The position numbers were made by a program, and so were the translations under genes. Of a DNA stretch of 64,000 nucleotides, positions 2 through 10,984 are shown piece by piece. The stretch is from Methanobacteriota archaeon (GTDB lineage: Archaea > Thermoplasmatota > Thermoplasmata > SG8-5 > DAIRED01): NCBI GenBank assembly GCA_043799545.1, contig JAZDNO010000026.1, positions 32,001 through 96,000 on the forward strand, read 5' to 3'. Position 1 is the stretch's first letter. The number at the start of each line of letters is the position of its first letter. Under the pieces are notes generated by a model that saw only the letters and a program-made list of their open reading frames with translations, did no database searches and was not told the origin of the DNA.

Positions 2-817
2 CCGTCGTGCAGGTCTCCCAACAAAGCGGCCTCGAAGAAGTGCGGGGTCTGCGGCGCTCAGATTTCGACCGTGAGGAAGAACGTCGACCTCGAGCAAATC
101 CAGGGCCGTGTGAACGAGACGATTAAAGAGGTCCTGGGAGACTTCGCGGAATCCGAGGATTTCGGGGCGCTCCCAAGCGATATGAAGGAAGAGATCGCCG
201 CCGTCCTTTCTTCCGAGAGGGAAATAACTGAGGAGGAGGTAAAGGACGTCGCCAAGACGCTGACATCACTACCCGAGGACATGACTCAGATTGTCGATGA
301 CATCGCGCTGGGGGAGGACGATTTCGGGGAGGGGAAGGGTGAGGAAGACGGAGGTGGTGAGGGCGAATCGTCCCCGGTAGAGAAAAGCTCTCGGCAACTC
401 AAGAAGAAGCAGATTCTGATGGCGAGGCTCGAACGGTGGAAGAAGATGGGCTACGACGTCTCCGAACTGGAGCCACTCGTCGACGGTGACTTCGAGACCT
501 TCAAAACAAAGGCGAAGGATATACTGTCCAGCAAGCTGAACAAGGCTGCCGCGAAAGGCACCGCCAAGCCTCCCTCCGAGAAGGCGGGCGATTCTAAGAA
601 ACAGGCTCCGCCAGCCTCCCAGAAAACCGACGGCGGAAAGGCCCCAGGAAAGAGGGGCGCCACGCCGGAGGAGCGCGCAAAGTTCCTGAGGCAAATCGGA
701 GTCTGGAAGGAAAGGGGCTTCGACGTCGCAGGTCTGGCCGAGCTTCTCGAAACGGACATGGCGGAGTTTAAGAAGAGGAGCATGGCGATGTTGAAAGCGC
801 AGATGAGCAAGAAGTAG
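2..817 (+). CDS. 5'-truncated hypothetical protein with zinc-ribbon remnant and two copies of a WKxxG(Y/F)DVxxL motif
   Basis: Frame is open from position 2 (PSCRSPNKAASKKCGVCGAQI, zinc-ribbon-like cysteines), so the gene starts upstream of the window. Internal repeats RWKKMGYDVSELEPL and VWKERGFDVAGLAEL. Confidence 0.75.
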   Translation, partial: PSCRSPNKAASKKCGVCGAQISTVRKNVDLEQIQGRVNETIKEVLGDFAESEDFGALPSDMKEEIAAVLSSEREITEEEVKDVAKTLTSLPEDMTQIVDDIALGEDDFGEGKGEEDGGGEGESSPVEKSSRQLKKKQILMARLERWKKMGYDVSELEPLVDGDFETFKTKAKDILSSKLNKAAAKGTAKPPSEKAGDSKKQAPPASQKTDGGKAPGKRGATPEERAKFLRQIGVWKERGFDVAGLAELLETDMAEFKKRSMAMLKAQMSKK

Positions 818-834
818 CCATATTGGTGCGGGCA

Positions 835-1827
835 ATGATCACCGTCAAAAACGTCACAAAAAGATACCGGAAGAACGCCAAGAGCAGCTCGTGGAAGACA
901 AGGGTCAAACAGATGTTCAGCGACAAGAAACGCGAATCCATGACTGCGCTGAACAACGTCGATTTCCAGGCGAACGGCGGAGAGATAATCGGAATCCTCG
1001 GGCCGAACGGCGCGGGAAAGACCACGCTTTTAAAAATAATCGCGGGGTTGCTTGTGCCAGAGGTCGGCCAAGGCGAGGTCAACGGATTCGACATCGTCAA
1101 GGACAGGGAAAAGGTGAGGACGTCGGTGAACTTCCTCATGAGCGGCGGCTGGGTCATCTTCGATTACAAATTCTCCGTGCGGGACAATCTTAGGTTTTGG
1201 GGGGTCTACCAGGGGTTGAGCCTGAAGGACGTCGACCAGAGGGTGGCGGAGGTTTTAAAGGTTGTCGAGCTGGAGGAGAAGAAAGACGAATTCCCCGAAA
1301 ACATTTCCGCCGGGATGAGGCAGAGGATGAACCTTGCCAGATGCCTGCTCGTCGACCGCCCGGTGTATCTGCTGGACGAGCCGACGGCCAACCTGGACCC
1401 CTACTCGGCCGAATTCATTAGGAAGTTCGTGAAGGAGAAGCTCCGAACGGACAATAAGACAATCGTCCTCGCGACCCACAACCTCTGGGAGGCCGAGCTG
1501 CTGTGCGACAGAATCGTCATCCTTAACAAGGGCGAGGTTCTGCTCGCGGACAAAACGGAGGAGATAAAAAGAAAGATCGGCAAGGAGGTGGCCATCATCG
1601 AGATCGAAAGTGAGGACGCGGAACTGCTGAAAACTTTCCGGGGGCTGGATTTCGTGGACAGCGCCACGCTGGAGGGAAACCGCCTGCGAATATTCGGCGA
1701 CGTTAAGAGAAACCTCCCCCGCATCATCGACATCTGCCGGGAGCGCACGACCGTCACAAGCGTGAACGTCCAGGAGCTCTCGCTGAACGACATATTCATC
1801 CAGCTGGTGAGCAGGGGTGAAACATGA
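835..1827 (+). CDS. ABC transporter ATP-binding subunit (DrrA/ABC-2 exporter type)
   Basis: Walker A GPNGAGKTT, signature ISAGMRQR, Walker B YLLDEPT, H-loop ATHNL; C-terminal extension typical of the DrrA family. ATG 835 preferred to GTG 823. Confidence 0.95.
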   Translation: MITVKNVTKRYRKNAKSSSWKTRVKQMFSDKKRESMTALNNVDFQANGGEIIGILGPNGAGKTTLLKIIAGLLVPEVGQGEVNGFDIVKDREKVRTSVNFLMSGGWVIFDYKFSVRDNLRFWGVYQGLSLKDVDQRVAEVLKVVELEEKKDEFPENISAGMRQRMNLARCLLVDRPVYLLDEPTANLDPYSAEFIRKFVKEKLRTDNKTIVLATHNLWEAELLCDRIVILNKGEVLLADKTEEIKRKIGKEVAIIEIESEDAELLKTFRGLDFVDSATLEGNRLRIFGDVKRNLPRIIDICRERTTVTSVNVQELSLNDIFIQLVSRGET

Positions 1828-2681
1828 TAAAGCACAGCCTCTCGCTCTCGGAAAAGCTCGAAGTAGTATATATTTCGATGTGGAGGTACGGGAAGTTAAT
1901 GACCAGATTTAAAACGAGCTTCTTCTTTTCCATAGTCGCCATGTTCGTCTCGATTACGACATTCTACTACTTCGGACAGGTGTTCGGGGACGCCACTGCC
2001 GTGGCCGTTGAAGACTACGGTGGCAACTACTTTTCCTATGTGCTCATCGGACTCGCGTTCAATCAGTTCGCTGTCACTAGCCTCAGCACCTATCTCGCGA
2101 CCGTACAAAATATATATTGGTCCAACTGGCTCGAGCTGATACTGACAGCCCCCATGCGCCTCAAGACATATTTCGTCGCTGCGATGTCCTGGGCTTACAC
2201 GTACTCGACTATCCTCATCGCCTTTTACTTCATCATCGGGGTCGGGATATTCGGGGCCGCGATTGCATTCCCCCCAGGCTGGTACGTCATCATACTCATC
2301 CTGTTCTTGACTGTCCTAAGCATCTCGGGCATCGGTTTGATGGCCGCAAGCACTTTCATGCTGTTGAACGCGAAAGGCCAGGTGGAGCCCATCAGCTGGT
2401 TCGTGGGCACGGTTTCCGCCCTTGTCTGCGGGGTCTATTATCCGCCCGAATTGCTGCCCCCGTCCATCCATGCCATCTCATACATCTTCCCGCACACGTA
2501 TGCCCTCGAGGGGCTGCGAGAGATACTCCTGAACGGGAAAGGCCTCATGGACCCGTCCATCCAAATGATAATCCTGATATTGGCAATATTCTCCATGATA
2601 CTCCTGCCGCTGGGAATGGCGATGTTCAAGTCAGGAATTAAAAAGGCTGAGAAGGATGGAACCCTGGCAAGATGGGTTTGA
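1824..2681 (+). CDS. ABC-2 type exporter permease
   Basis: About six hydrophobic segments, GVYYPPELLP and FPHTYALEGLR motifs of ABC-2 permeases; 4-nt overlap with the ATPase. Confidence 0.92.
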   Translation: MIKHSLSLSEKLEVVYISMWRYGKLMTRFKTSFFFSIVAMFVSITTFYYFGQVFGDATAVAVEDYGGNYFSYVLIGLAFNQFAVTSLSTYLATVQNIYWSNWLELILTAPMRLKTYFVAAMSWAYTYSTILIAFYFIIGVGIFGAAIAFPPGWYVIILILFLTVLSISGIGLMAASTFMLLNAKGQVEPISWFVGTVSALVCGVYYPPELLPPSIHAISYIFPHTYALEGLREILLNGKGLMDPSIQMIILILAIFSMILLPLGMAMFKSGIKKAEKDGTLARWV

Positions 2682-2790
2682 TTCTGCGATCCAGCCCCCG
2701 CGCGATTTCATCGAATTCGCGAGCGGTTGTGCGGCGCGGAATGCAAATCAATTGATGTATTGGGTCACAACAATGTTAATCTATGTGATT

Positions 2791-2806
2791 CCAAAAAATA
2801 TAAATA
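2791..2806 (+). promoter_or_regulatory. BRE/TATA promoter of the putative RiPP precursor
   Basis: CCAAAAAATATAAATA: A-rich BRE-like tract then TATAAATA, flanked by the inverted repeat AATGTTA (2772-2778) / TAACATT (2814-2820). Confidence 0.7.
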
Positions 2807-2879
2807 TGAGATGTAACATTCACGATTCACCCTGACATGCAAAAGCATGTGTGTGGTAACCAAGAAAGGGAGGTTAAAA

Positions 2880-3017
2880 ATGCCAGGAGACGGAAATGGA
2901 TTCGACCCCATCGACCCGGGCCAGGGATACAAGCACAGGCACGGACACGAAGCAACCGGATGCGGATGCGTAGAGGTTGGTTCCATATACGCAGTATTCG
3001 ACCCACAGCCGGTTTAA
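2880..3017 (+). CDS. Putative RiPP precursor peptide, 45 aa: MPGDGNGFDPIDPGQGYKHRHGHEATGCGCVEVGSIYAVFDPQPV
   Basis: Hand-translated ATG 2880 to TAA 3017. Strong Shine-Dalgarno GGGAGGT (2868-2874) 5 nt upstream, own TATA box, and position directly upstream of an RRE-radical SAM gene. Confidence 0.85.
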   Translation: MPGDGNGFDPIDPGQGYKHRHGHEATGCGCVEVGSIYAVFDPQPV

Positions 3018-3030
3018 TCGATTTAAACCG
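3010..3030 (+). terminator. Stem-loop overlapping the precursor stop codon (stabiliser or attenuator)
   Basis: Perfect 8-bp stem CGGTTTAA / TTAAACCG with a 5-nt loop TCGAT. Function is inferred. Confidence 0.5.
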
Positions 3031-3141
3031 ACGGAGAAAAACTCTTCCAATCTTTCTATAATTATTAATAACTGATAATAATAGGGAGCAGCGCGGGCTG
3101 CCAGAGGTGGTTTCACGGAAAAACCGAAACTCGCAAAGGCT

Positions 3142-4491
3142 GTGGTCGTCAAGAAGAAGAACGGAAAGAGCGCGTTCATTCACCCCGACATTCCCAAATG
3201 GCTCGCTTTCCGCGCCGAGGGGGCCCGGACCCTGGAGCTGTGCGACGGAACGCGGAGCGAGCGGGACATCATCGAGACAATTTCGAGGGAATTCAACGAG
3301 CCCATGGAGTATGTGGGGAAGGGAGTCGCCGGCCTACTTAGCCACTGCGAGAAGCAGGGATTCTTCCAGGATGTCACCCCGAAGAGACCGGACGCCCTGC
3401 CAGTGGAGATGAAGATACTCTACCTGAACATCACCCGGGAGTGCAACCTGAGGTGCACCTATTGCTATGCGAGCGCGGGCGCCCAGCGGGAAAAAGAGCT
3501 GACTCTGGAGGAGATAAAGAAGCTCCTGAGCGAGTTCCACGCCCTTGGAAAAGGGACGCGGCAGAACGTCATAATAACTGGCGGGGAGCCGCTGCTGAGG
3601 AAAGACTTCTGGCAGATTGCCGAATATGCGAGGTCGCTGGGGCTCGTCCTTGTGCTTTCCTCAAACGGACTCCTCATCGACAGGGAGACTGCAAGGAAAT
3701 TGGGTAAGCTCTTCGGCGGCGTGCAGATCAGCCTCGACGGCGACAGGGAGATGCACGACAAATGCCGGGGCAAGGGGTCCTTCGACGGGGCGACGAGGGG
3801 CATAGAAAACCTGGTCGAAGCCGGCATCACGCCGTCGATATCTGCCACTGTGACAAAAGAGAACTTCAAAAAGCTGGACAACCTGTGGGACGTGTGCGAC
3901 AAGTACAAAATAAAGCACGTGAAGACCAACCCCATCATCCCCCTAGGCCGGGCGGAGAGCGACAGAGACGAGATAATGCTGTCGAGGGACGAATACATAG
4001 AGCTCTGGAGGGCGACCAAGCAGCAGCTCAAGAAGCGCCGCCTGGAGGTCACGATAGATAACGAGCGGTCCATTTTCTCGGGAGGCACGTCGTTCAAGGG
4101 CACGGGCAACTCTTGCGGAGCCGGCCGGACGTCCATCAGCTTCGAATCCAACGGGGACGCCTATCCGTGCCAGGCATCGCATCTCCCGCAGTTCCTCTGC
4201 GGTAACATAAGGGAGAAATCTCTGGAAGAGATCGTGACGGGGGCGGAAGTTCTGAAGGACTGGATGGGCCGCTCAATCAACGACATTCCGGGATGCAGCT
4301 CCTGCGAATGGAAGATGTACTGCGGCGGCGGCTGCTTCCTGCAGGCGGCTCTGGGCCACGGGACCGTGCACGCGCCGGATGTCTATTGCGACGTTTACAA
4401 GTTCGAATACGAGGAGACGTTTTGGGAATTTGTGGACAAAAGGGAAAAAGAACAGGAGGAATCAAATGACGGGCAAGCAGCCAAAGTTTGA
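3142..4491 (+). CDS. RRE (PqqD-like)-fused radical SAM/SPASM peptide maturase
   Basis: N-terminal PqqD-like segment (EGARTLELCDGTRSERDIIETISREF); CNLRCTYC radical SAM motif; TGGEPLL; SPASM CX12GX4C then CX2CX5CX3CX17C. True start may be the in-frame ACG at 3115. Confidence 0.93.
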   Translation: MVVKKKNGKSAFIHPDIPKWLAFRAEGARTLELCDGTRSERDIIETISREFNEPMEYVGKGVAGLLSHCEKQGFFQDVTPKRPDALPVEMKILYLNITRECNLRCTYCYASAGAQREKELTLEEIKKLLSEFHALGKGTRQNVIITGGEPLLRKDFWQIAEYARSLGLVLVLSSNGLLIDRETARKLGKLFGGVQISLDGDREMHDKCRGKGSFDGATRGIENLVEAGITPSISATVTKENFKKLDNLWDVCDKYKIKHVKTNPIIPLGRAESDRDEIMLSRDEYIELWRATKQQLKKRRLEVTIDNERSIFSGGTSFKGTGNSCGAGRTSISFESNGDAYPCQASHLPQFLCGNIREKSLEEIVTGAEVLKDWMGRSINDIPGCSSCEWKMYCGGGCFLQAALGHGTVHAPDVYCDVYKFEYEETFWEFVDKREKEQEESNDGQAAKV

Positions 4492-5602
4492 AATCAAGAG
4501 CGGGCGAATTTACTACGAGAACATACCGCCGGGAACGCCTATGTCCCAGCTGATGACGGGATTTTTCAAGGACAAAATAGAGAACGAGGGGATGGGTCCG
4601 CTGATGGCGCAGTGGATAGCGACCAGCAAATGCAATTTCAGGTGCCCGCATTGCGGCACCGCGGCCTCTGAGGCAAAGCCCGACGAGCTGAGCTGGGCCC
4701 AAATCAAACCGGTCATAGAGGATTTGGCAAGCATGGGATGCAAGACTTTCACGATGACCGGGGGGGAGCCGATACTGCGACCGGATTTCTGGAAGATCGT
4801 GGACCACGCCCACGCCAACGGGATGAAGACCGGATTCGTGACGAACGCCTGGGCCATAAAGGATTTCGAGGACGAGCTGAGGCGAGCCAAGATAGAGACC
4901 ATCCTGGTCAGCATCGACGGCTACAGAGAGAACCATGACAAAATCCGCGGGATGCCCGGCTCGTACAAGAAGTGCCTCGAGGCCATCCGGTTCCTGAAGG
5001 ACATCGGCACCCCCGTGGTGGGCGTGTCGACGGTCTACATGAAGGACAACGTCGATTTCCTGCCGCAAATCGTGGACGAGGCGGCCAAAGCCGGCGCGGA
5101 CAGGCATCGCCTCCAGGCCATCGTGCCGGAGGGGCGCTCGAAGGGCAAGGGTAACAGCCGGGAGGAGATAAAAAAGGCCATAAAATTCGTCTACGACGCC
5201 AGGAAGCGAGGGGTCAACATCGAGGTGTGCGAGGCGCACGGATGGCTCGGGCCGCTTGACGGCATCCTGAGGGCCAACTTCTACTGCGGCATCGGCCTGA
5301 ACACGCTGTGCATAATGCAGAACGGCGACGTCATGGGCTGCTCCCTCATGGACTACCCGGACAAGACAGAGGGGAACGTGAAGGACAAAAGCATCAAGGA
5401 CATATGGTTCAACGGTTTCAAGATGTACAGGCAGCCTACGCTCCCGGACCTCCCCAAGGAATGCACCGACTGCAAGCAGCTCATCGAGTGCAGGGGCGGA
5501 TGCTGGCTCCACCGCATGAACAACAACTTCTGCTTCCTCCCCATGGCCGTGGAGGTCGCGCGAGAATCTGGGGATTTCCCCAATCTCGACGAGAAGTACT
5601 GA
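4466..5602 (+). CDS. Radical SAM/SPASM protein without RRE (second maturase)
   Basis: CNFRCPHC motif, TGGEPILR, SPASM CX12GX4C then CX2CX5CX3CX9C. ATG 4466 follows SD GGAGGA and overlaps the upstream gene end. Confidence 0.93.
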   Translation: MTGKQPKFEIKSGRIYYENIPPGTPMSQLMTGFFKDKIENEGMGPLMAQWIATSKCNFRCPHCGTAASEAKPDELSWAQIKPVIEDLASMGCKTFTMTGGEPILRPDFWKIVDHAHANGMKTGFVTNAWAIKDFEDELRRAKIETILVSIDGYRENHDKIRGMPGSYKKCLEAIRFLKDIGTPVVGVSTVYMKDNVDFLPQIVDEAAKAGADRHRLQAIVPEGRSKGKGNSREEIKKAIKFVYDARKRGVNIEVCEAHGWLGPLDGILRANFYCGIGLNTLCIMQNGDVMGCSLMDYPDKTEGNVKDKSIKDIWFNGFKMYRQPTLPDLPKECTDCKQLIECRGGCWLHRMNNNFCFLPMAVEVARESGDFPNLDEKY

Positions 5603-5672: not shown

Positions 5673-6935
5673 CTAGCACATCAGGAAGAGCCAGTAAATC
5701 GCCACTTGGGCGAGGGTGAGGGGGATGCCGACCTTTGCGAACTCCATGAACGTCAGGGTCTGGTTCCCTTTCCTCTCTGCATTCTGGATGATTATCACAT
5801 TGCTGGCGGCTCCGAGGATGAGCAGGTTGCCGGCGATGGTGCTCCCCGCAGCGAGGGCCATGAACCCCCTGTCTCCCGTGCCAGCTGCCACGAGCATCGG
5901 AATGTAAAGAGCCACGAGCGGGACGTTTGATATCACCTGGCTGAGCAGGACGGAGATGATGATAATCATCGCAATTCCAGACATGTCTATGCCCCATTCC
6001 CCGATGAGCCCTTGGAAGAAGCCCGAATTCCAAACGGCGGCCATCAAGACGAACATCGCGGCGAAGAAGACCAGCGTGGACCAGTCGACTCCCTTCATTA
6101 TCCCGACGCGTTTCGGGCTGAGTGCGAGGATTGGCAGCGCAGCCGCAAGCGCGACATAAGTTAGGCGCATCTCGGTGTTCAGTCCTGCGATGGCCATGGA
6201 GATTTTCAAAGCCACCAGCGCCAGTATCATCACGAGGGAGGCTTTGGCGAGCATCGCGAGCTTCGGGTCGCGCAGCGGAACGTCCTCGTGGACCAGCGGC
6301 CTGCCGTGGAACTCTTTTCCGAAGAAGATCCTCAACGCGAGGTATGCTAGCAGGAGGTTGAGCACCGTGGGGACCAGCAGATTCCTCGCGAAGGTGGCGA
6401 ACGGGTTCTCCATCCCCCCGCCGATGGCGATGAGAAGGTTCTGTGGGTTTCCGATTGGGCTGGCCACGCTTCCGACTGTAATCGAGAAGGCGAGCACGAG
6501 CAGCATCAGCTTTGGGGACATCTCGTGCCGCTTCGACATCGCCAGCACGACCGGCGTGCCTATGATTGCAAGCGTGTCGTTCATGAGGAGCGCGGACGCC
6601 GAACCGAACCCAAACATCATAAGTAAGACGAGCTGGTCCGTTGTGCGGGCGCGTCTGAAAAGCCTGTACGACAGATGCTCCAGGTAACCGCTCCGCTCCA
6701 GCGCCTCCCCCACAACGAACATCCCGAAGAGGAATATCATCACGTCGGGGTTTATGGCCTTAATGGCTTCGACGGGTGATATCTGGAGCGTCGCCACGAC
6801 CGCCACCGCGCCACCGAGCATCACCTGCCATATCTGAAGGCGGAAACGCCCGACCTGCCTCACCGCTATGAGCACAAAGACGGCGAGCAGGATGAAGATG
6901 GTGAGGGGCGGCACGGCATCAAGGAAATCCGGCAA
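5673..6935 (-). CDS. ArsB/NhaD/SLC13-family anion permease
   Basis: Polytopic membrane protein with SALLMNDT, ASPIGNPQNLLI, ISNVP and AGSTIAGNLLILGAASNVII motifs. Confidence 0.9.
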   Translation of the reverse strand: MPDFLDAVPPLTIFILLAVFVLIAVRQVGRFRLQIWQVMLGGAVAVVATLQISPVEAIKAINPDVMIFLFGMFVVGEALERSGYLEHLSYRLFRRARTTDQLVLLMMFGFGSASALLMNDTLAIIGTPVVLAMSKRHEMSPKLMLLVLAFSITVGSVASPIGNPQNLLIAIGGGMENPFATFARNLLVPTVLNLLLAYLALRIFFGKEFHGRPLVHEDVPLRDPKLAMLAKASLVMILALVALKISMAIAGLNTEMRLTYVALAAALPILALSPKRVGIMKGVDWSTLVFFAAMFVLMAAVWNSGFFQGLIGEWGIDMSGIAMIIIISVLLSQVISNVPLVALYIPMLVAAGTGDRGFMALAAGSTIAGNLLILGAASNVIIIQNAERKGNQTLTFMEFAKVGIPLTLAQVAIYWLFLMC

Positions 6936-7022
6936 GCAGATATAATATTAATGAAGCCGGCTCGCGCGGAAGGCCGACCCAACCTTTAAATCCCATCTAT
7001 GCGATGCTCGTTTTGGGATAAT

Positions 7023-7721
7023 ATGAAGGAACGCATCAAGACATACGTCATGGACCTGGACGAGCAGATAGGCGGAGGGGTGCCGAAGGGCCACGTCGTG
7101 CTGGTCTCCGGGATGCCTGGAACTATGAAATCGTCAGTCGCTTACAACGTTCTATACTACAACGCGCGCGAGCTAGGTACGCGAGGGCTCTATGTCTCGC
7201 TCGAGCAGGGACGCGACAGCATCGTGGAGCAGATGGCCGGGCTCGGCATGGCGCACGGGGAGGTCGAGGAGCTTGTGAACATCGTGGACCTCGGGTACCT
7301 GCGCATGAACACGGACCAGGGAAAGATGAGCCACGACTGGCTTGAGGTTTTTAGGCTGTATGTCCAAAACCTCCGCGCTGCGACGAAGTACGAACTGCTG
7401 GTGGTCGATTCGCTCCCGGTGCTGGAGATTCTTTCCAAGCCCGACGACCGCCGCGTGAGGCTCTTCGAGCTTTTCGGCTGGCTGCGCGAGCTGGGGATAA
7501 CCACGTTCATCATCTCCGAGTCGGCGAAGCGCGACGACGTCGTGCACGAGGAGGACTTCCTCGCGGACGGCATCATCCTTCTCAGGAAGGAGATAGTCGG
7601 CAACGACGTCCAGCGCCAGATAATCGTTGACAAGATGCGCGGCGCGAAGCACGCCATGGGCGCCTACTCGCTGATGCACGACGGGGAGAACTTCAGGATA
7701 ACGAAGGTCATAAACGGCTGA
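7023..7721 (+). CDS. KaiC/RAD55-like ATPase, single domain
   Basis: Walker A GMPGTMKS, LYVSLEQ, Walker B LLVVDSL, ADGIILL and KMRG motifs. Confidence 0.9.
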   Translation: MKERIKTYVMDLDEQIGGGVPKGHVVLVSGMPGTMKSSVAYNVLYYNARELGTRGLYVSLEQGRDSIVEQMAGLGMAHGEVEELVNIVDLGYLRMNTDQGKMSHDWLEVFRLYVQNLRAATKYELLVVDSLPVLEILSKPDDRRVRLFELFGWLRELGITTFIISESAKRDDVVHEEDFLADGIILLRKEIVGNDVQRQIIVDKMRGAKHAMGAYSLMHDGENFRITKVING

Positions 7722-7792
7722 ACCGTGGTGGCAGCCTCACCGTTCAATCCTCGCCGTCCTCGCCGCACGTTCAACTAGCTTTCGGGAAATCT

Positions 7793-7804
7793 ATGAGAAC
7801 TCTC
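7793..7804 (+). promoter_or_regulatory. Operator-like 12-mer ATGAGAACTCTC upstream of TATA
   Basis: Identical copy at 11027-11038; about 19 nt upstream of TTTAACTA (7813). Confidence 0.5.
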
Positions 7805-7877
7805 AGGTAATCTTTAACTAGTCTTACTTACAAAGTAACTTTTCAAGCGTTGCGCAAGCAACGCCGGAGGCTGAAAA

Positions 7878-8375
7878 ATGAGACGATTGGCAACAATAGC
7901 GGTAGCGCTGGCCTTCGTCGCCCTTATCTTTCAGGGCGGCGGAGCTCGAGCGTGCGGTGTGAACGTCGTGGACGCGACAATCAGCGCCACCATCTCGGGG
8001 GGAAACGCGTCGTTCGTAGTGACTTACCCTCCGGAGACGGAGGTCGCGGGGACGATACGCCTAGCTCCCAGACCGCTGGTCTTCACGGAAAACGAGGAAA
8101 CGGGATGCTGGGAGACCGGGGACGTGAGCGCTCGACTGATAATATCCGGAGGCAACTCGGAGATGGCAACATTGATACCTGCGGGACACGGACCGCACGC
8201 GCATGAGACCGTGCTGAGGCTCGGCGGGCCGCTCAAGTTCGTATGCGACCCACTGACGCCCGGCACGGTTTCTCTCGGACCGCTGCCGCTGATGGAACCG
8301 GACATCCAGGACACGTTCGGCAACGGCAGCCCGACGATAATCCTGATGGAACCGGACATCGAAGACCCATACTAA
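7878..8375 (+). CDS. Secreted hypothetical protein with duplicated C-terminal LMEPDI(Q/E)D motif
   Basis: Signal peptide MRRLATIAVALAFVALIFQGGGARA; DNA repeat ctgatggaaccggacatc occurs twice near the 3' end. Confidence 0.7.
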   Translation: MRRLATIAVALAFVALIFQGGGARACGVNVVDATISATISGGNASFVVTYPPETEVAGTIRLAPRPLVFTENEETGCWETGDVSARLIISGGNSEMATLIPAGHGPHAHETVLRLGGPLKFVCDPLTPGTVSLGPLPLMEPDIQDTFGNGSPTIILMEPDIEDPY

Positions 8376-10984
8376 GCGAGCATGGTACACTGCCCATGTC
8401 TAATAAACTCTTTCGATATTTCTTTTCTAAGGATCTTGTTTCCCATATCGTCAGCTAAGGAAAGAGCCCGCTTAAAAACACTCCTGGCCTCATCCTCACG
8501 ACCGCAAGCATTGCACGCCATCCCAAGGCGGGTGAGGGCTCGGGCGATGGCTTTGGGCTGAGCGTATCGCTCCGCTGCCTCGACGCCAGACCTCGCAAAG
8601 TCCAGCGCTTCCGTATACTGGCCTCGCTGGTAGTAGACCATCGAAAGGTTGTTGTGCACGGCCACCAGCATACGCAGATCCCCGATGCCCACAAGAATGT
8701 CACGCGCCTTTACCAGCGCATCCTCCGCCGATGTGAGGTCCGGTTTCCTTATCAGCACGCCCCCGAGGTTCGCCAGGGCCATCCCCTCCATCGGGAGGTT
8801 TCCGGTCTCTCTCGCCAGGTTAATGGTTCTATCGTAGTAGCCAACAGCCCCCGGTATGTCGCGCACCGCGAATGAGATCTTTCCGAGCGACATGAGCAGT
8901 TTGAGGATCGTAGCCTTCTCCTCGCTACCTTCCAGAAGCTTCAACGCCCGCTCTTTATAATACCTCGCCCGCCCGAGGTGCCCCCGCGCCTCTTCCACCC
9001 GCCCCTTGCCGTAGAATGCCAATGCCAACAGCGGCGTGCTTCCGCAGGATTCGGCCAGCTTCCTCACCATACCGAATTCGCTTTCGGCCATTTCCATGTC
9101 CTCTGTCTCGAGGAGCGATCCCATGAAGTACCGCCCTCTTGCCTCGGATTCCCTGTTCCCGGTTTTCACAGAGAGGGCAATCCCCTGGTCGAGCGCATGG
9201 CGCGCTTCAGCCCTCTTCCCTCTATGCAGGCACAGCTCGCCCAGGGCGCACAGCGCGTCGCATTCGAGCCCGGAGATCCGCGCCTCCCGCGCCAGTGAAA
9301 CTGCGGAGCCGAGCTTGATGGAGGCCTCGCTCCACCTTCCCACGTGCCCGTAGACCTTGCCCAGGGAGACCAGCATCTTCGGGTCAAGCTCCGTCCGCCC
9401 GCCGCACAAAACATCGGCAGCCTCGTCCAGCCCGTGCACGAACCCCTTCCCGACCAGCTCGACCGCCAGCTTGCAGAAAAGGGCGCGCGCCTCTGCATCC
9501 TCCCCGGCCTTGCACAAATGATGGATGGCCTCGAGCCCGCTTGCGGGACCGACCGACCCCGCGTAGTGCCTTCCCAGCAGGAGATGGGCCCTCTTCCTCT
9601 CAGGGCCGGCCCGCCTCTTCTGGACAAAGTCAGACAGGATGTCGTGCACTCCGAACGCCGTGGGCGACACCGGCATGGCCAGGCCGCGCTCGACAAGGCC
9701 GTCCATCCTCTCCCGCCCCACGCCCAGCGGTCCGGCCAAGGCGTCGACGGAGATCGGTTCGCGCGAGACGCTGAGCAGCGTCATCGCCTCCCAATCGGCT
9801 TCGGAGAGACCGGAAAACACCTCGGCGCGCAGGTAACAGTCCAGGCTTTTGTCGACCGCCGGGCTCTCCGCCGGGGCGAGCTTGAGAAACAGGGGGTGCC
9901 CCCCGCAGAGTTGAACCAGCCCTCCGGCTGGCACCTTCCTGGCCGCAAGTATCTTCCTCGAGGATTCGGAATCCAGGAAACCTAGCTTGATTTCGGAGAC
10001 AGTTCCGTCCATAACGTCGCGCCCGTCATGGATTTTCGGGCATCTTCTGCCGATCGACACAAGCTTGAGGCCAGGTTCGCCACGGGTTATTTCCAGAAGC
10101 ATCGACACGAGGTCCATCGCGTCGCCGCGTGCGGCATGGATGTCATCGATGACCACCGCCAGCCTCATCCGCTTGGCGTCCTCCGCCATCGCGCGCCCGA
10201 AGACCTGCAAATCCCAGTCGCCTGCGGAGAGCGCGGATGCCGTGCGGCTGCGACCGAGGACTGACAGGAATGCCCCCAGCTCCGCCGCCACCTGCTGCGC
10301 CGAGGTCCAGCGCTTCAGCGGAATCCAGCAGACGTGCGACCTTGCGGACCAGTTTTTCACCATTCTGGATATGAACGCGGTCTTTCCAATCCCGGCGATT
10401 CCCGTGACAACGAGCATTTTCGCGGCGCGGCTGCGCCACCATTCGGACGCCTTGGCCATCTCCGCGCTCCGGCCGTAGAAATCGCCCAGCTCGGGGATTG
10501 CCTTTACGGCATAGCCGCCGAAACCGCGCTTGACGCGCCGGCCCTCAAACCAGTTCAGGTCCAGCTCCCCGAATTTCACTGACCCGGCGACCTCAGACAA
10601 CGTGCATCCTGCAGGGACGTACGCCGGAATCTCGGAGAGCGGAACGACCCTCGGACCTCCCGGCGTCTCAATCCTCACATCCAGCATCTCGGCCCTCTCC
10701 ATGAGCGCCCCGAGTTCGACCGCGCCAGCCCTGTCGAGCCGGTAATATTTTGAGATGTGGGTCCGGCCGGCCGGCCTCGCGCGCCTAACCTCCACCAGCC
10801 TCGCGCGCTCCATCTCCTTCAGAGCCCTCGCGACGTTTCCCCTTCCGACTCCGGTGGCGTACGCGATACCCTCCTGTGTAACCGTGTTGGGAACGTCGTG
10901 GTCCCTGACGACGCGCTGCTCGCCGAGGTGGAGGACTATACGCTCCTTCACTGTGAACGCGGCCTCTCCCTTCCTTGGCCTCAT
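8372..10984 (-). CDS. wHTH-STAND (NB-ARC/MalT-like) NTPase-TPR regulator
   Basis: N-terminal HTH (TQEGIAYATGVGRGNVARALKEME), Walker A GIAGIGKT, Walker B VVIDD, STAND GxP motif CGGHPLFL, multiple C-terminal TPRs. Confidence 0.9.
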   Translation of the reverse strand: MRPRKGEAAFTVKERIVLHLGEQRVVRDHDVPNTVTQEGIAYATGVGRGNVARALKEMERARLVEVRRARPAGRTHISKYYRLDRAGAVELGALMERAEMLDVRIETPGGPRVVPLSEIPAYVPAGCTLSEVAGSVKFGELDLNWFEGRRVKRGFGGYAVKAIPELGDFYGRSAEMAKASEWWRSRAAKMLVVTGIAGIGKTAFISRMVKNWSARSHVCWIPLKRWTSAQQVAAELGAFLSVLGRSRTASALSAGDWDLQVFGRAMAEDAKRMRLAVVIDDIHAARGDAMDLVSMLLEITRGEPGLKLVSIGRRCPKIHDGRDVMDGTVSEIKLGFLDSESSRKILAARKVPAGGLVQLCGGHPLFLKLAPAESPAVDKSLDCYLRAEVFSGLSEADWEAMTLLSVSREPISVDALAGPLGVGRERMDGLVERGLAMPVSPTAFGVHDILSDFVQKRRAGPERKRAHLLLGRHYAGSVGPASGLEAIHHLCKAGEDAEARALFCKLAVELVGKGFVHGLDEAADVLCGGRTELDPKMLVSLGKVYGHVGRWSEASIKLGSAVSLAREARISGLECDALCALGELCLHRGKRAEARHALDQGIALSVKTGNRESEARGRYFMGSLLETEDMEMAESEFGMVRKLAESCGSTPLLALAFYGKGRVEEARGHLGRARYYKERALKLLEGSEEKATILKLLMSLGKISFAVRDIPGAVGYYDRTINLARETGNLPMEGMALANLGGVLIRKPDLTSAEDALVKARDILVGIGDLRMLVAVHNNLSMVYYQRGQYTEALDFARSGVEAAERYAQPKAIARALTRLGMACNACGREDEARSVFKRALSLADDMGNKILRKEISKEFIRHGQCTMLA

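Follow-up and report, generated by a model that had tools for sequence, protein, structure and literature searches.

What product five adjacent genes might make and export, when they combine a very short open reading frame (ORF) with a transporter and two radical S-adenosylmethionine (SAM) enzymes, is the question raised by contig JAZDNO010000026.1 of an uncultured Methanobacteriota archaeon, one of the Thermoplasmata (GenBank assembly GCA_043799545.1). The genes are at 835–5602 of a 64,000 nucleotide stretch of this contig, referred to here as the window, and encode an ATP-binding cassette (ABC) ATPase, an ABC-2 permease, a 45 amino acid peptide and two SPASM-domain radical SAM enzymes, rSAM-1 and rSAM-2 (Table 1). 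[quoted passage not shown] Its coordinates hold overall, with two gene starts revised: the conserved N-terminus of rSAM-1 reaches to 3115, not 3142, and 4466 is the best-supported start of rSAM-2, the longer form from 4379 being rejected because the homologues align from 4466. The cluster is considered, with a probability of about 0.8, to hold the biosynthetic genes for a radical SAM-modified RiPP of an uncurated and uncharacterized family. This reading is supported by a RiPP recognition element (RRE) in rSAM-1, by conservation of the peptide and by the absence of a cofactor context, with the cross-linking chemistry being presumed.

Judged by its pattern of substitution, the 45-codon ORF is more than a chance reading frame and is under purifying selection. 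Its orthologue in Methanomassiliicoccales archaeon CSMAG_1752 (G016) is a 43 amino acid ORF that occupies the corresponding place, is preceded by the same ribosome-binding site and has 54% identity. The core stretch C-V-E-V-G-S-I-Y-A is identical in both, and in the DNA alignment all five of the nucleotide differences within it are at third codon positions. Two replacements that follow this stretch are not at third positions, and the flanking DNA is much less alike. The nucleotide changes of the core are thus mainly third-position changes while the flanks diverge, which would suggest that selection acts on the encoded peptide.

The peptide has no match among the Pfam or NCBIfam families, in agreement with the earlier remark that it has no known PqqA, MftA or SCIFF motif, and as a query against 5.8 billion predicted proteins it matched itself only. 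It is unannotated because it is without relatives among called proteins and without a family in these two collections. Since homologous peptides are not called as genes, they were sought by six-frame reading beside enzyme homologues: the genomes of relatives were searched with rSAM-1, the flanks were fetched and the intergenic regions were read in all six frames. At 12 other loci, a homologue of rSAM-1 or rSAM-2 has a related short ORF beside it, and a conserved peptide near homologous enzymes, on which the preliminary description had made its reading depend, is therefore present. A profile built from 16 family peptides has two matches at E < 1e-7 in the whole 2.06-Mb genome, these being the window peptide and a contig 2 peptide that adjoins a paralogue of rSAM-1; the next match, at E 0.14, was not credible.

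Residues 1–27 of the peptide are likely the leader, with a motif that is F-D-P-I-D-P here and F-Q-P-I-D-P in G016, and the core runs roughly from C28 to V45, holding C28, C30, E32 and the Y37-A-V motif. Several leaders of the family have aromatic-(D/N/Q)-P-(I/V) near the N-terminus and (A)N(E/D)NSA...G directly before the core; the RRE may contact the first, and cleavage may take place at the second. Most of the family cores keep an acidic residue and a Tyr. The HxHxH motif of the window peptide was rejected as functionally important, as it is missing in the closest orthologue.

The first of the two enzymes, rSAM-1, groups by layout and fold with the RRE-dependent radical SAM-SPASM RiPP maturases, closest to thioether-forming enzymes, and is outside every curated family. 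It has what defines this general class, namely an RRE, CxxxCxxC with a seven-Cys SPASM domain, and an adjoining precursor. The PqqD match in rSAM-1 covers residues 27–74 (E 3.8e-4, 21.2 bits, against a Pfam cutoff of 23.4), and PqqD is matched by 11 of the 13 aligned family members, the best at 2.5e-11. An AlphaFold2 model built on an alignment of 63 sequences (predicted local distance difference test, pLDDT, 93; predicted template modelling score 0.90) has strands at 2–6, 9–13 and 20–23 and helices at 25–32, 40–51 and 55–71, all with pLDDT > 90. Residues 2–71 of the model, three strands and then three helices, have the topology of an RRE. The Foldseek search of the PDB places CteB first, aligned over its full length including the N-terminal domain (template modelling score 0.68–0.72), followed by SkfB, anSME, SuiB, PqqE and TigE, and phmmer against the PDB gives CteB at 4.6e-24 and SkfB at 3.9e-20. 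The RRE proposed earlier for the N-terminus of rSAM-1 is thus upheld by the PqqD matches in the family, by the predicted fold and by the alignment with CteB.

In rSAM-1 the radical SAM triad C101/C105/C108 is invariant across 63 relatives, and the SPASM cysteines are C325, C343, C385, C388, C394, C398 and C416, six of them invariant in the 63 and C388 present in at least 90%. By residue-level alignment, rSAM-1 and CteB have one Cys where the SPASM hairpin starts, whereas anSME has two, and one iron of the first auxiliary cluster of rSAM-1 would therefore be without a protein ligand. In CteB, the substrate cysteine binds at this open iron of the auxiliary cluster. Scores of rSAM-1 are below every NCBIfam cutoff, with StsB (NF045574) at 190 bits against 625, MftC (TIGR03962) at 166 against 265, AhbD at 151 against 500, DynA at 149 against 450, PapB at 117 against 340, PqqE (TIGR02109) at 100 against 381, the SCIFF maturase (TIGR03974) at 98.9 against 425 and SkfB at 92 against 300. 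Membership of the SCIFF system fails on the peptide as well, which has two Cys where the motif has six in 45 residues.

The gene for rSAM-2 overlaps that of rSAM-1 by 26 nucleotides, with AGGAGG 6 nucleotides 5' of the ATG at 4466, an arrangement from which it is judged to be translationally coupled to rSAM-1. The enzyme is without an RRE, because its AlphaFold2 model (pLDDT 88) has just a β-hairpin and one helix ahead of the barrel, and Pfam and NCBIfam give no match in its N-terminal region. C56/C60/C63 do not vary in the alignment of its family, which also shows a SPASM motif of seven Cys. Among solved structures, SkfB, SuiB, CteB, PqqE and anSME are the nearest. It too is below the NCBIfam cutoffs, with TIGR04133 the best at 137.6 bits against 425, then MftC at 136 against 265 and PqqE at 89 against 381.

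The rSAM-2 clade was delimited by at least 40% identity, no RRE, a seven-Cys SPASM and a neighbour with one or more hydrophobic-Y-[GAS]-[VIAPF] motifs, all of which the window enzyme has; an ORF with the motif is directly beside the enzyme in 13 of the 15 loci. Database comparisons indicate that the family is very rare and sharply bounded, identity dropping from at least 40% to at most 30%. The word-seeded search of 5.8 billion proteins gave 12 relatives at 42–74% identity, and an exhaustive phmmer search over 1.84 billion cluster representatives gave four above 250 bits. Among 185,579 species genomes, members are present in G016 (twice) and once each in Elusimicrobiota, Omnitrophota, Nitrospirota and an unclassified bacterium, past which identity drops to 29% or less. 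A further three members are in 241 million metagenome records.

Which part of the precursor each enzyme might act on is indicated by the distribution of peptide features among the loci. Both enzymes are present in the window, at two loci of G016 (C16 and C77) and at L036, L037/38 and L039/40, where the cores read C-x(0-7)-C-[TV]-[ED]-[VI]-G-x-x-Y-[GA]-x-F, or close variants of it, with two or three Cys. Related Cys-bearing short ORFs are found at 10 other rSAM-1-type loci. Those without rSAM-2 are in G006, G014, the contig 2 paralogue of the present genome (G000), a second locus of G016 and Thermococcus prieurii (32% identity), and in their peptides CxC, CxCxC, CxxxC or a more widely spaced Cys pair precedes a tail that is hydrophobic and rich in Gly.

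At loci with only the rSAM-2 type, the precursor is Cys-free or nearly so. L122 has, next to an ABC pair, a Cys-free peptide of 38 amino acids whose last residues are A-L-Y-G-V-M. The two peptides of L121 are likewise without Cys and contain A-W-Y-(S/A)-V, and this locus also has radical SAM genes of the B12-binding type and PqqD proteins encoded separately. In the bacterial loci L043, L123, L124, L130 and L044, the rSAM-2 relative is directly 3' of a gene for a protein of 170–330 amino acids with 3–9 repeats of P-(M/L)-Y-(G/A)-(V/I/A)-(E/Q)-P, several of these proteins having signal-peptide-like N-termini. The repeat proteins match nothing in Pfam or NCBIfam, and may be protein-sized substrates of the rSAM-2 family.

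Cys in the core goes with an rSAM-1-type enzyme, the two occurring together at 11 loci, and in the six loci without rSAM-1 the sole Cys are one or two outside the repeats, in three of the long bacterial proteins. These counts cover few loci, related by descent, and are to be read as a pattern, not as a statistical test. By this pattern, the precursor appears to have two separable parts, one for each enzyme, with the Cys for rSAM-1 and the Tyr motif for rSAM-2. Because its relatives act in Cys-free contexts, rSAM-2 is not in general a Cys-thioether synthase.

Several of the related loci have further features of their own. In the present genome, L025 (contig 2: 139000–151000) carries the rSAM-1 paralogue (35% identity; 5741–7138, - strand) and its 47 amino acid peptide (7172–7312, - strand), which has two Cys (C-H-G-P-C ... 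G-I-M-I-I-I-G-P-W), with no rSAM-2 and no matching ABC-2 pair. At L021 (G016 contig 16), the region 7496–10225 adjoins the orthologous cluster and is a duplicated, partly decayed cluster, in which an N-terminally truncated rSAM-2 copy of 254 amino acids without CxxxCxxC (7496–8260) lies beside a divergently oriented second peptide and an rSAM-1 paralogue. Thermococcus prieurii (L027: 3141–8577) has a 37 amino acid C-A-C-Q-C ORF, then a DrrA-type ABC pair and a radical SAM-SPASM enzyme, with a separate PqqD protein and an S24/S26-like peptidase, and is a split-RRE version in a cultured genus. An IS200/IS605-type transposase-like ORF (L045: 862–1260, + strand) lies between the Nitrospirota rSAM-2 relative and the expected precursor position.

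In the working proposed for the cluster, the precursor is translated from its own strong ribosome-binding site, and its aromatic-(D/N/Q)-P-(I/V) leader motif would be bound by the PqqD-like RRE modelled in rSAM-1. This enzyme would turn C28 and/or C30 into intramolecular thioethers, of sactionine or ranthionine type, and rSAM-2 would modify I-Y37-A-V, most likely with a Tyr-centred cross-link and, as the main alternative, with epimerization of Val/Ile. The leader, if removed at all, would be cut in trans, with the likely position after the conserved Gly just before the first Cys. Export of the product, protection of the producer or both would fall to the DrrAB-type ABC-2 pump, as its co-inheritance suggests. 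The ATPase scores 228 bits with TIGR01188 (drrA), under the cutoff, and is 47–49% identical to those of L122 and L022; the permeases of these two loci are 40–47% identical to that of the window. With the pairs 40–49% identical, the pump has thus been co-inherited in some members of the family. Peptidase candidates at related loci are the S24/S26-like protein of T. prieurii, a weak M29-like match at L037 and, at L043, a membrane protease with HExxH that is akin to RiPP proteases of the daptide and YydH/LiaK types.

For rSAM-2 itself, a Tyr-centred C-C or C-O link is the foremost candidate, proposed tentatively; epimerization of the adjacent Val/Ile is unlikely, and a Tyr-to-acid link of the PqqE type slightly more so. 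It is put forward as a possibility falling somewhat short of even that rSAM-2 represents an unrecognized family, spanning two domains of life, that places a new modification on hydrophobic-Tyr-(Gly/Ala/Ser)-(Val/Ile), with the window product then a hybrid RiPP that also carries Cys thioethers. Its substrates would, as part of the same proposal, be short archaeal peptides and long secreted proteins of Elusimicrobiota and Omnitrophota with up to nine PMYG(V/I)EP repeats.

A number of observations weigh against these readings in whole or in part. The PqqD match of the window rSAM-1 itself is sub-threshold, neither enzyme reaches an NCBIfam cutoff (StsB and TIGR04133 being the best, at 190 against 625 and 138 against 425), and with ACG at its ancestral start rSAM-1 may lack part of its N-terminus or be translated poorly. 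At L036, L037 and L039 there is no ABC pair, and the pair is not, then, obligatory for the system. No peptidase is found in the cluster or its immediate flanks, the part of the 64-kb window that was covered, and for this part the earlier remark that the window shows none is sustained; the HExxH protease of L043, as a query, had no match in this genome (94% complete). The thioether assignment is drawn by analogy from the resemblance to CteB, SkfB and StsB and from the correlation with Cys. The loci compared are few and share descent, and the rSAM-2 relatives of L045 and L046 have no motif-bearing ORF adjacent, the rSAM-2-like domain of L046 sharing one open frame with an upstream domain. The rSAM-1-only peptides of G006 and G014 keep YGI, so that the Tyr motif is not exclusive to rSAM-2, and its region could instead be the thioether acceptor region.

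This last point leads to the reading in which both enzymes make the same bond, as one thioether synthase per Cys, with the Tyr-Gly/Ala stretch as acceptor. For such a division there is precedent in TrnC/TrnD and RumMC1/RumMC2. Both enzymes have a seven-Cys SPASM and have SkfB and CteB among their top structural matches, and the core has two Cys. However, the rSAM-2 relative is the only CteB/SPASM-type maturase in L122, L043, L123, L124 and L130, and the precursors of L122 and of these bacteria have no Cys in the repeat or core region, which makes a shared chemistry improbable.

About equally improbable is that, in this genome, the cluster is silent or in decay and yields no mature product, a reading that turns on the start of rSAM-1. 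The conserved N-terminus of the enzyme (T-E-K-P-K-L-A-K-A) lies 5' of the GTG at 3142 and begins at codon 3115, which is ACG here and ATG in the G016 orthologue, and a strong ribosome-binding site, AGAGGTGG at 3103–3110, still precedes it. Codon 3115 may be a non-canonical, inefficient start, a lost start with re-initiation at GTG 3142, or a base or assembly error. That such clusters do decay is seen from the truncated rSAM-2 copy of G016 (L021: 7496–8260). Against loss of function here, all five frames are intact, a start at the in-frame GTG 3142 keeps all three strands of the RRE in the model, ACG can serve, weakly, as a start codon, and the assembly may be wrong at this single base.

It is a little less probable again that the peptide is the scaffold of a small intracellular redox cofactor, like PQQ or mycofactocin, with E32...Y37 cross-linked or decarboxylated. 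PqqA supplies the Glu and the Tyr from which PQQ is formed, and the acidic residue and the Tyr are conserved in most of the cores; for each enzyme MftC is among the top NCBIfam matches (166 and 136 bits), and the structural neighbours include PqqE. These scores are far under the cutoffs of 265 for MftC and 381 for PqqE, however, and no homologues of PqqB, PqqC, PqqF, MftD, MftE or MftF are adjacent. The precursors vary widely among loci, unlike cofactor precursors, the distribution is patchy and accessory-like, and the co-inherited ABC-2 exporters, with the bacterial repeat proteins that bear signal peptides, point to an extracellular product. Clustering with cofactor enzymes, which had been named at the outset as what would count against a RiPP, is not seen, the models of AhbC, AhbD, NirJ, PqqE and MftC giving 100–166 bits against cutoffs of 265–650. 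The reading of the radical SAM genes as heme maturation enzymes of the AhbC/AhbD/NirJ type beside a chance ORF can be dismissed, since AhbD and NirJ give 130–151 bits (103–151 with AhbC) against cutoffs of 500–650, these families are without the RRE that rSAM-1 has, the peptide is conserved, under purifying selection, and set beside an exporter, and separate AhbD-like matches are present elsewhere in the genome.

The radical SAM-modified RiPP that is preferred here can be placed among known systems through each of its enzymes. CteB (PDB 5WGG/5WHY), SkfB, AlbA, StsB and PapB share the three-domain layout of RRE, radical SAM barrel and seven-Cys SPASM, and CteB, the best match to rSAM-1 by sequence and fold, shares with it the single hairpin Cys and a Cys-bearing core. 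They differ in that identity is about 20%, with scores far under the cutoffs, and the host here is an archaeon; the window precursor, with its two Cys, lacks a SCIFF, Sbo or Sts motif, and a second, unrelated SPASM enzyme is coupled to the first. For rSAM-2 and its relatives, the best NCBIfam match is TIGR04133, of an uncharacterized radical SAM/lipoprotein system (138–169 bits, with L123 at 169), in which, as for the bacterial relatives of rSAM-2, the defining partner encoded beside the enzyme is a secreted protein or lipoprotein and not a short peptide. One cluster in the ESM Atlas neighbourhood is automatically named for this system, the neighbours being generic radical SAM/SPASM proteins. 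The cutoff of 425 is not reached, though, and the rSAM-2 partners, with a Tyr-Gly/Ala motif of their own, match no NCBIfam model.

Maturases of triceptides, which are three-residue cyclophanes, are radical SAM-SPASM enzymes that act on short, often repeated aromatic-X-X motifs. The Y-(G/A)-(V/I) of the present family, in up to nine repeats, is formally like aromatic-X-X and so may be compared with the substrates of triceptide maturases and of other Tyr-directed enzymes of this class, PqqE, MftC and RrrB, although rSAM-2 is near none of their cutoffs and has no RRE. In the epipeptide system YydF-G-H-IJ/EpeE, a short peptide and a radical SAM enzyme are found with an HExxH membrane protease and an ABC transporter (PMC13012085). 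L043 has a YydH/LiaK-like protease, and by analogy the Val/Ile beside the conserved Tyr could be epimerized; EpeE is a distant structural match, however, there is no protease at the window cluster and the precursors are without sequence similarity.

Radical SAM RiPPs of archaea are almost unexplored, and the literature search returned one biochemically characterized archaeal SPASM thioether enzyme and one bioinformatic report. The former, CrpC of Methanococcus voltae, was shown experimentally in 2026 to form ranthionine thioethers on CrpA, a large Cys-rich repeat protein (PMC13692751). As in the window, an archaeal radical SAM-SPASM enzyme and a Cys-bearing ribosomal substrate are encoded alongside each other, CrpC belonging to TIGR04463 (PMC13692751). 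The latter is a 2026 preprint on subtilosin-like sboA-albA-albC loci of Thermococcus, where the enzyme is also paired with an ABC transporter gene and the AlbA and SboA homologues were probably acquired from Bacillota (10.64898/2026.07.27.741052). The window family differs from both in its precursor, its second enzyme and its distribution over two domains. Searches for radical SAM RiPPs in Thermoplasmata, Omnitrophota or Elusimicrobiota, for the peptide motifs (PMYG, MYGVE, KYGVF, ANENSA) and for any description of the rSAM-2 family found nothing relevant in the literature covered, most subscription journals being outside it.

The layout of the cluster and the RRE-radical SAM-SPASM class are already known, and the precursor family and the rSAM-2 clade are not curated. 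What is added here is the apparent split of the precursor into a Cys part for rSAM-1 and a Tyr-motif part for rSAM-2. The cluster is compact, with one 45 amino acid peptide, two enzymes and one pump, and the comparative data suggest the residues for each enzyme. The chemistry of rSAM-2 would be easy to isolate, with L122 as a natural single-enzyme system and L043, L123 and L124 as sources of multi-repeat substrates. Should the Tyr-Gly/Ala modification prove to be new, it would be a type of RiPP or protein cross-link common to Thermoplasmata and several poorly studied bacterial phyla.

Among the 22 genomes of the order, 4 carry the rSAM-1 clade, as do 3 among 401 taken from across the phylum, and at the same threshold it was not found in a genome of the same genus (84% complete). 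The G016 locus is flanked by dihydroorotate dehydrogenase genes, while here the neighbours are a zinc-ribbon protein and a CitMHS transporter. GC content falls to 0.52 across the permease and peptide region, against 0.57–0.60 nearby. Because of this patchy distribution, the differing flanks and the dip in GC, the genomic pattern fits an accessory, horizontally mobile cassette in archaea and bacteria.

Table 1. Cluster features in the window, with the repeat-protein genes of related bacterial loci
Feature	Position	Strand	Evidence and remarks
ABC transporter ATPase, DrrA type	835..1827	+	PF00005 2.3e-30; PF13732 (DrrA C-terminal domain) 4e-10; other possible start TTG 823
ABC-2 type permease	1824..2681	+	PF01061 1.3e-12; shares 4 nucleotides with the ATPase stop
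Candidate promoter of the peptide gene, AT-rich TATA-like element AAAAAATATAAATA	2793..2807	+	about 73 nucleotides 5' of the ATG; putative, read from the sequence
Shine-Dalgarno GGGAGG of the precursor gene	2868..2873	+	6 nucleotides 5' of the ATG; GGAGGT at equal spacing in the G016 orthologue
Precursor peptide, 45 amino acids	2880..3017	+	orthologue in G016; family profile match
AT-rich spacer between peptide and enzymes; candidate attenuating terminator and/or second promoter	3053..3083	+	T-rich tract in the orthologous spacer of G016
rSAM-1, RRE-radical SAM-SPASM maturase	3115..4491	+	radical SAM 6.5e-28; SPASM 7.9e-9; PqqD 3.8e-4; first canonical start GTG 3142
rSAM-2, radical SAM-SPASM enzyme without RRE	4466..5602	+	radical SAM 4.1e-27; SPASM 1.4e-7
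Bacterial repeat proteins	L043:4260-4784, L123:2400-3380, L124:2400-3359, L130:81-611		immediately 5' of the rSAM-2 relative

The G016 orthologues of the two window enzymes are 61% (rSAM-1) and 72% (rSAM-2) identical to them. The genes flanking the cluster on both sides look unrelated to it. On the 3' side, by Pfam, the CitMHS transporter gene is on the opposite strand, and one for a KaiC-like ATPase comes after it. On the 5' side, a 405 amino acid protein with zinc ribbons and low-complexity acidic and lysine-rich stretches (L206: 5601–6818, window -400..817, + strand) ends 17 nucleotides before the start of the ABC ATPase, with which it may be co-transcribed; it has no family match, and no homologue was noted at the other loci. 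Further 5', about 490–1690 bases before position 1 of the window and divergently oriented, is the gene for an archaeal S-adenosylmethionine synthetase (PF01941, 4.9e-168; L206: 4312–5511, - strand), which, near as it is to two SAM-consuming enzymes, is probably a housekeeping gene.

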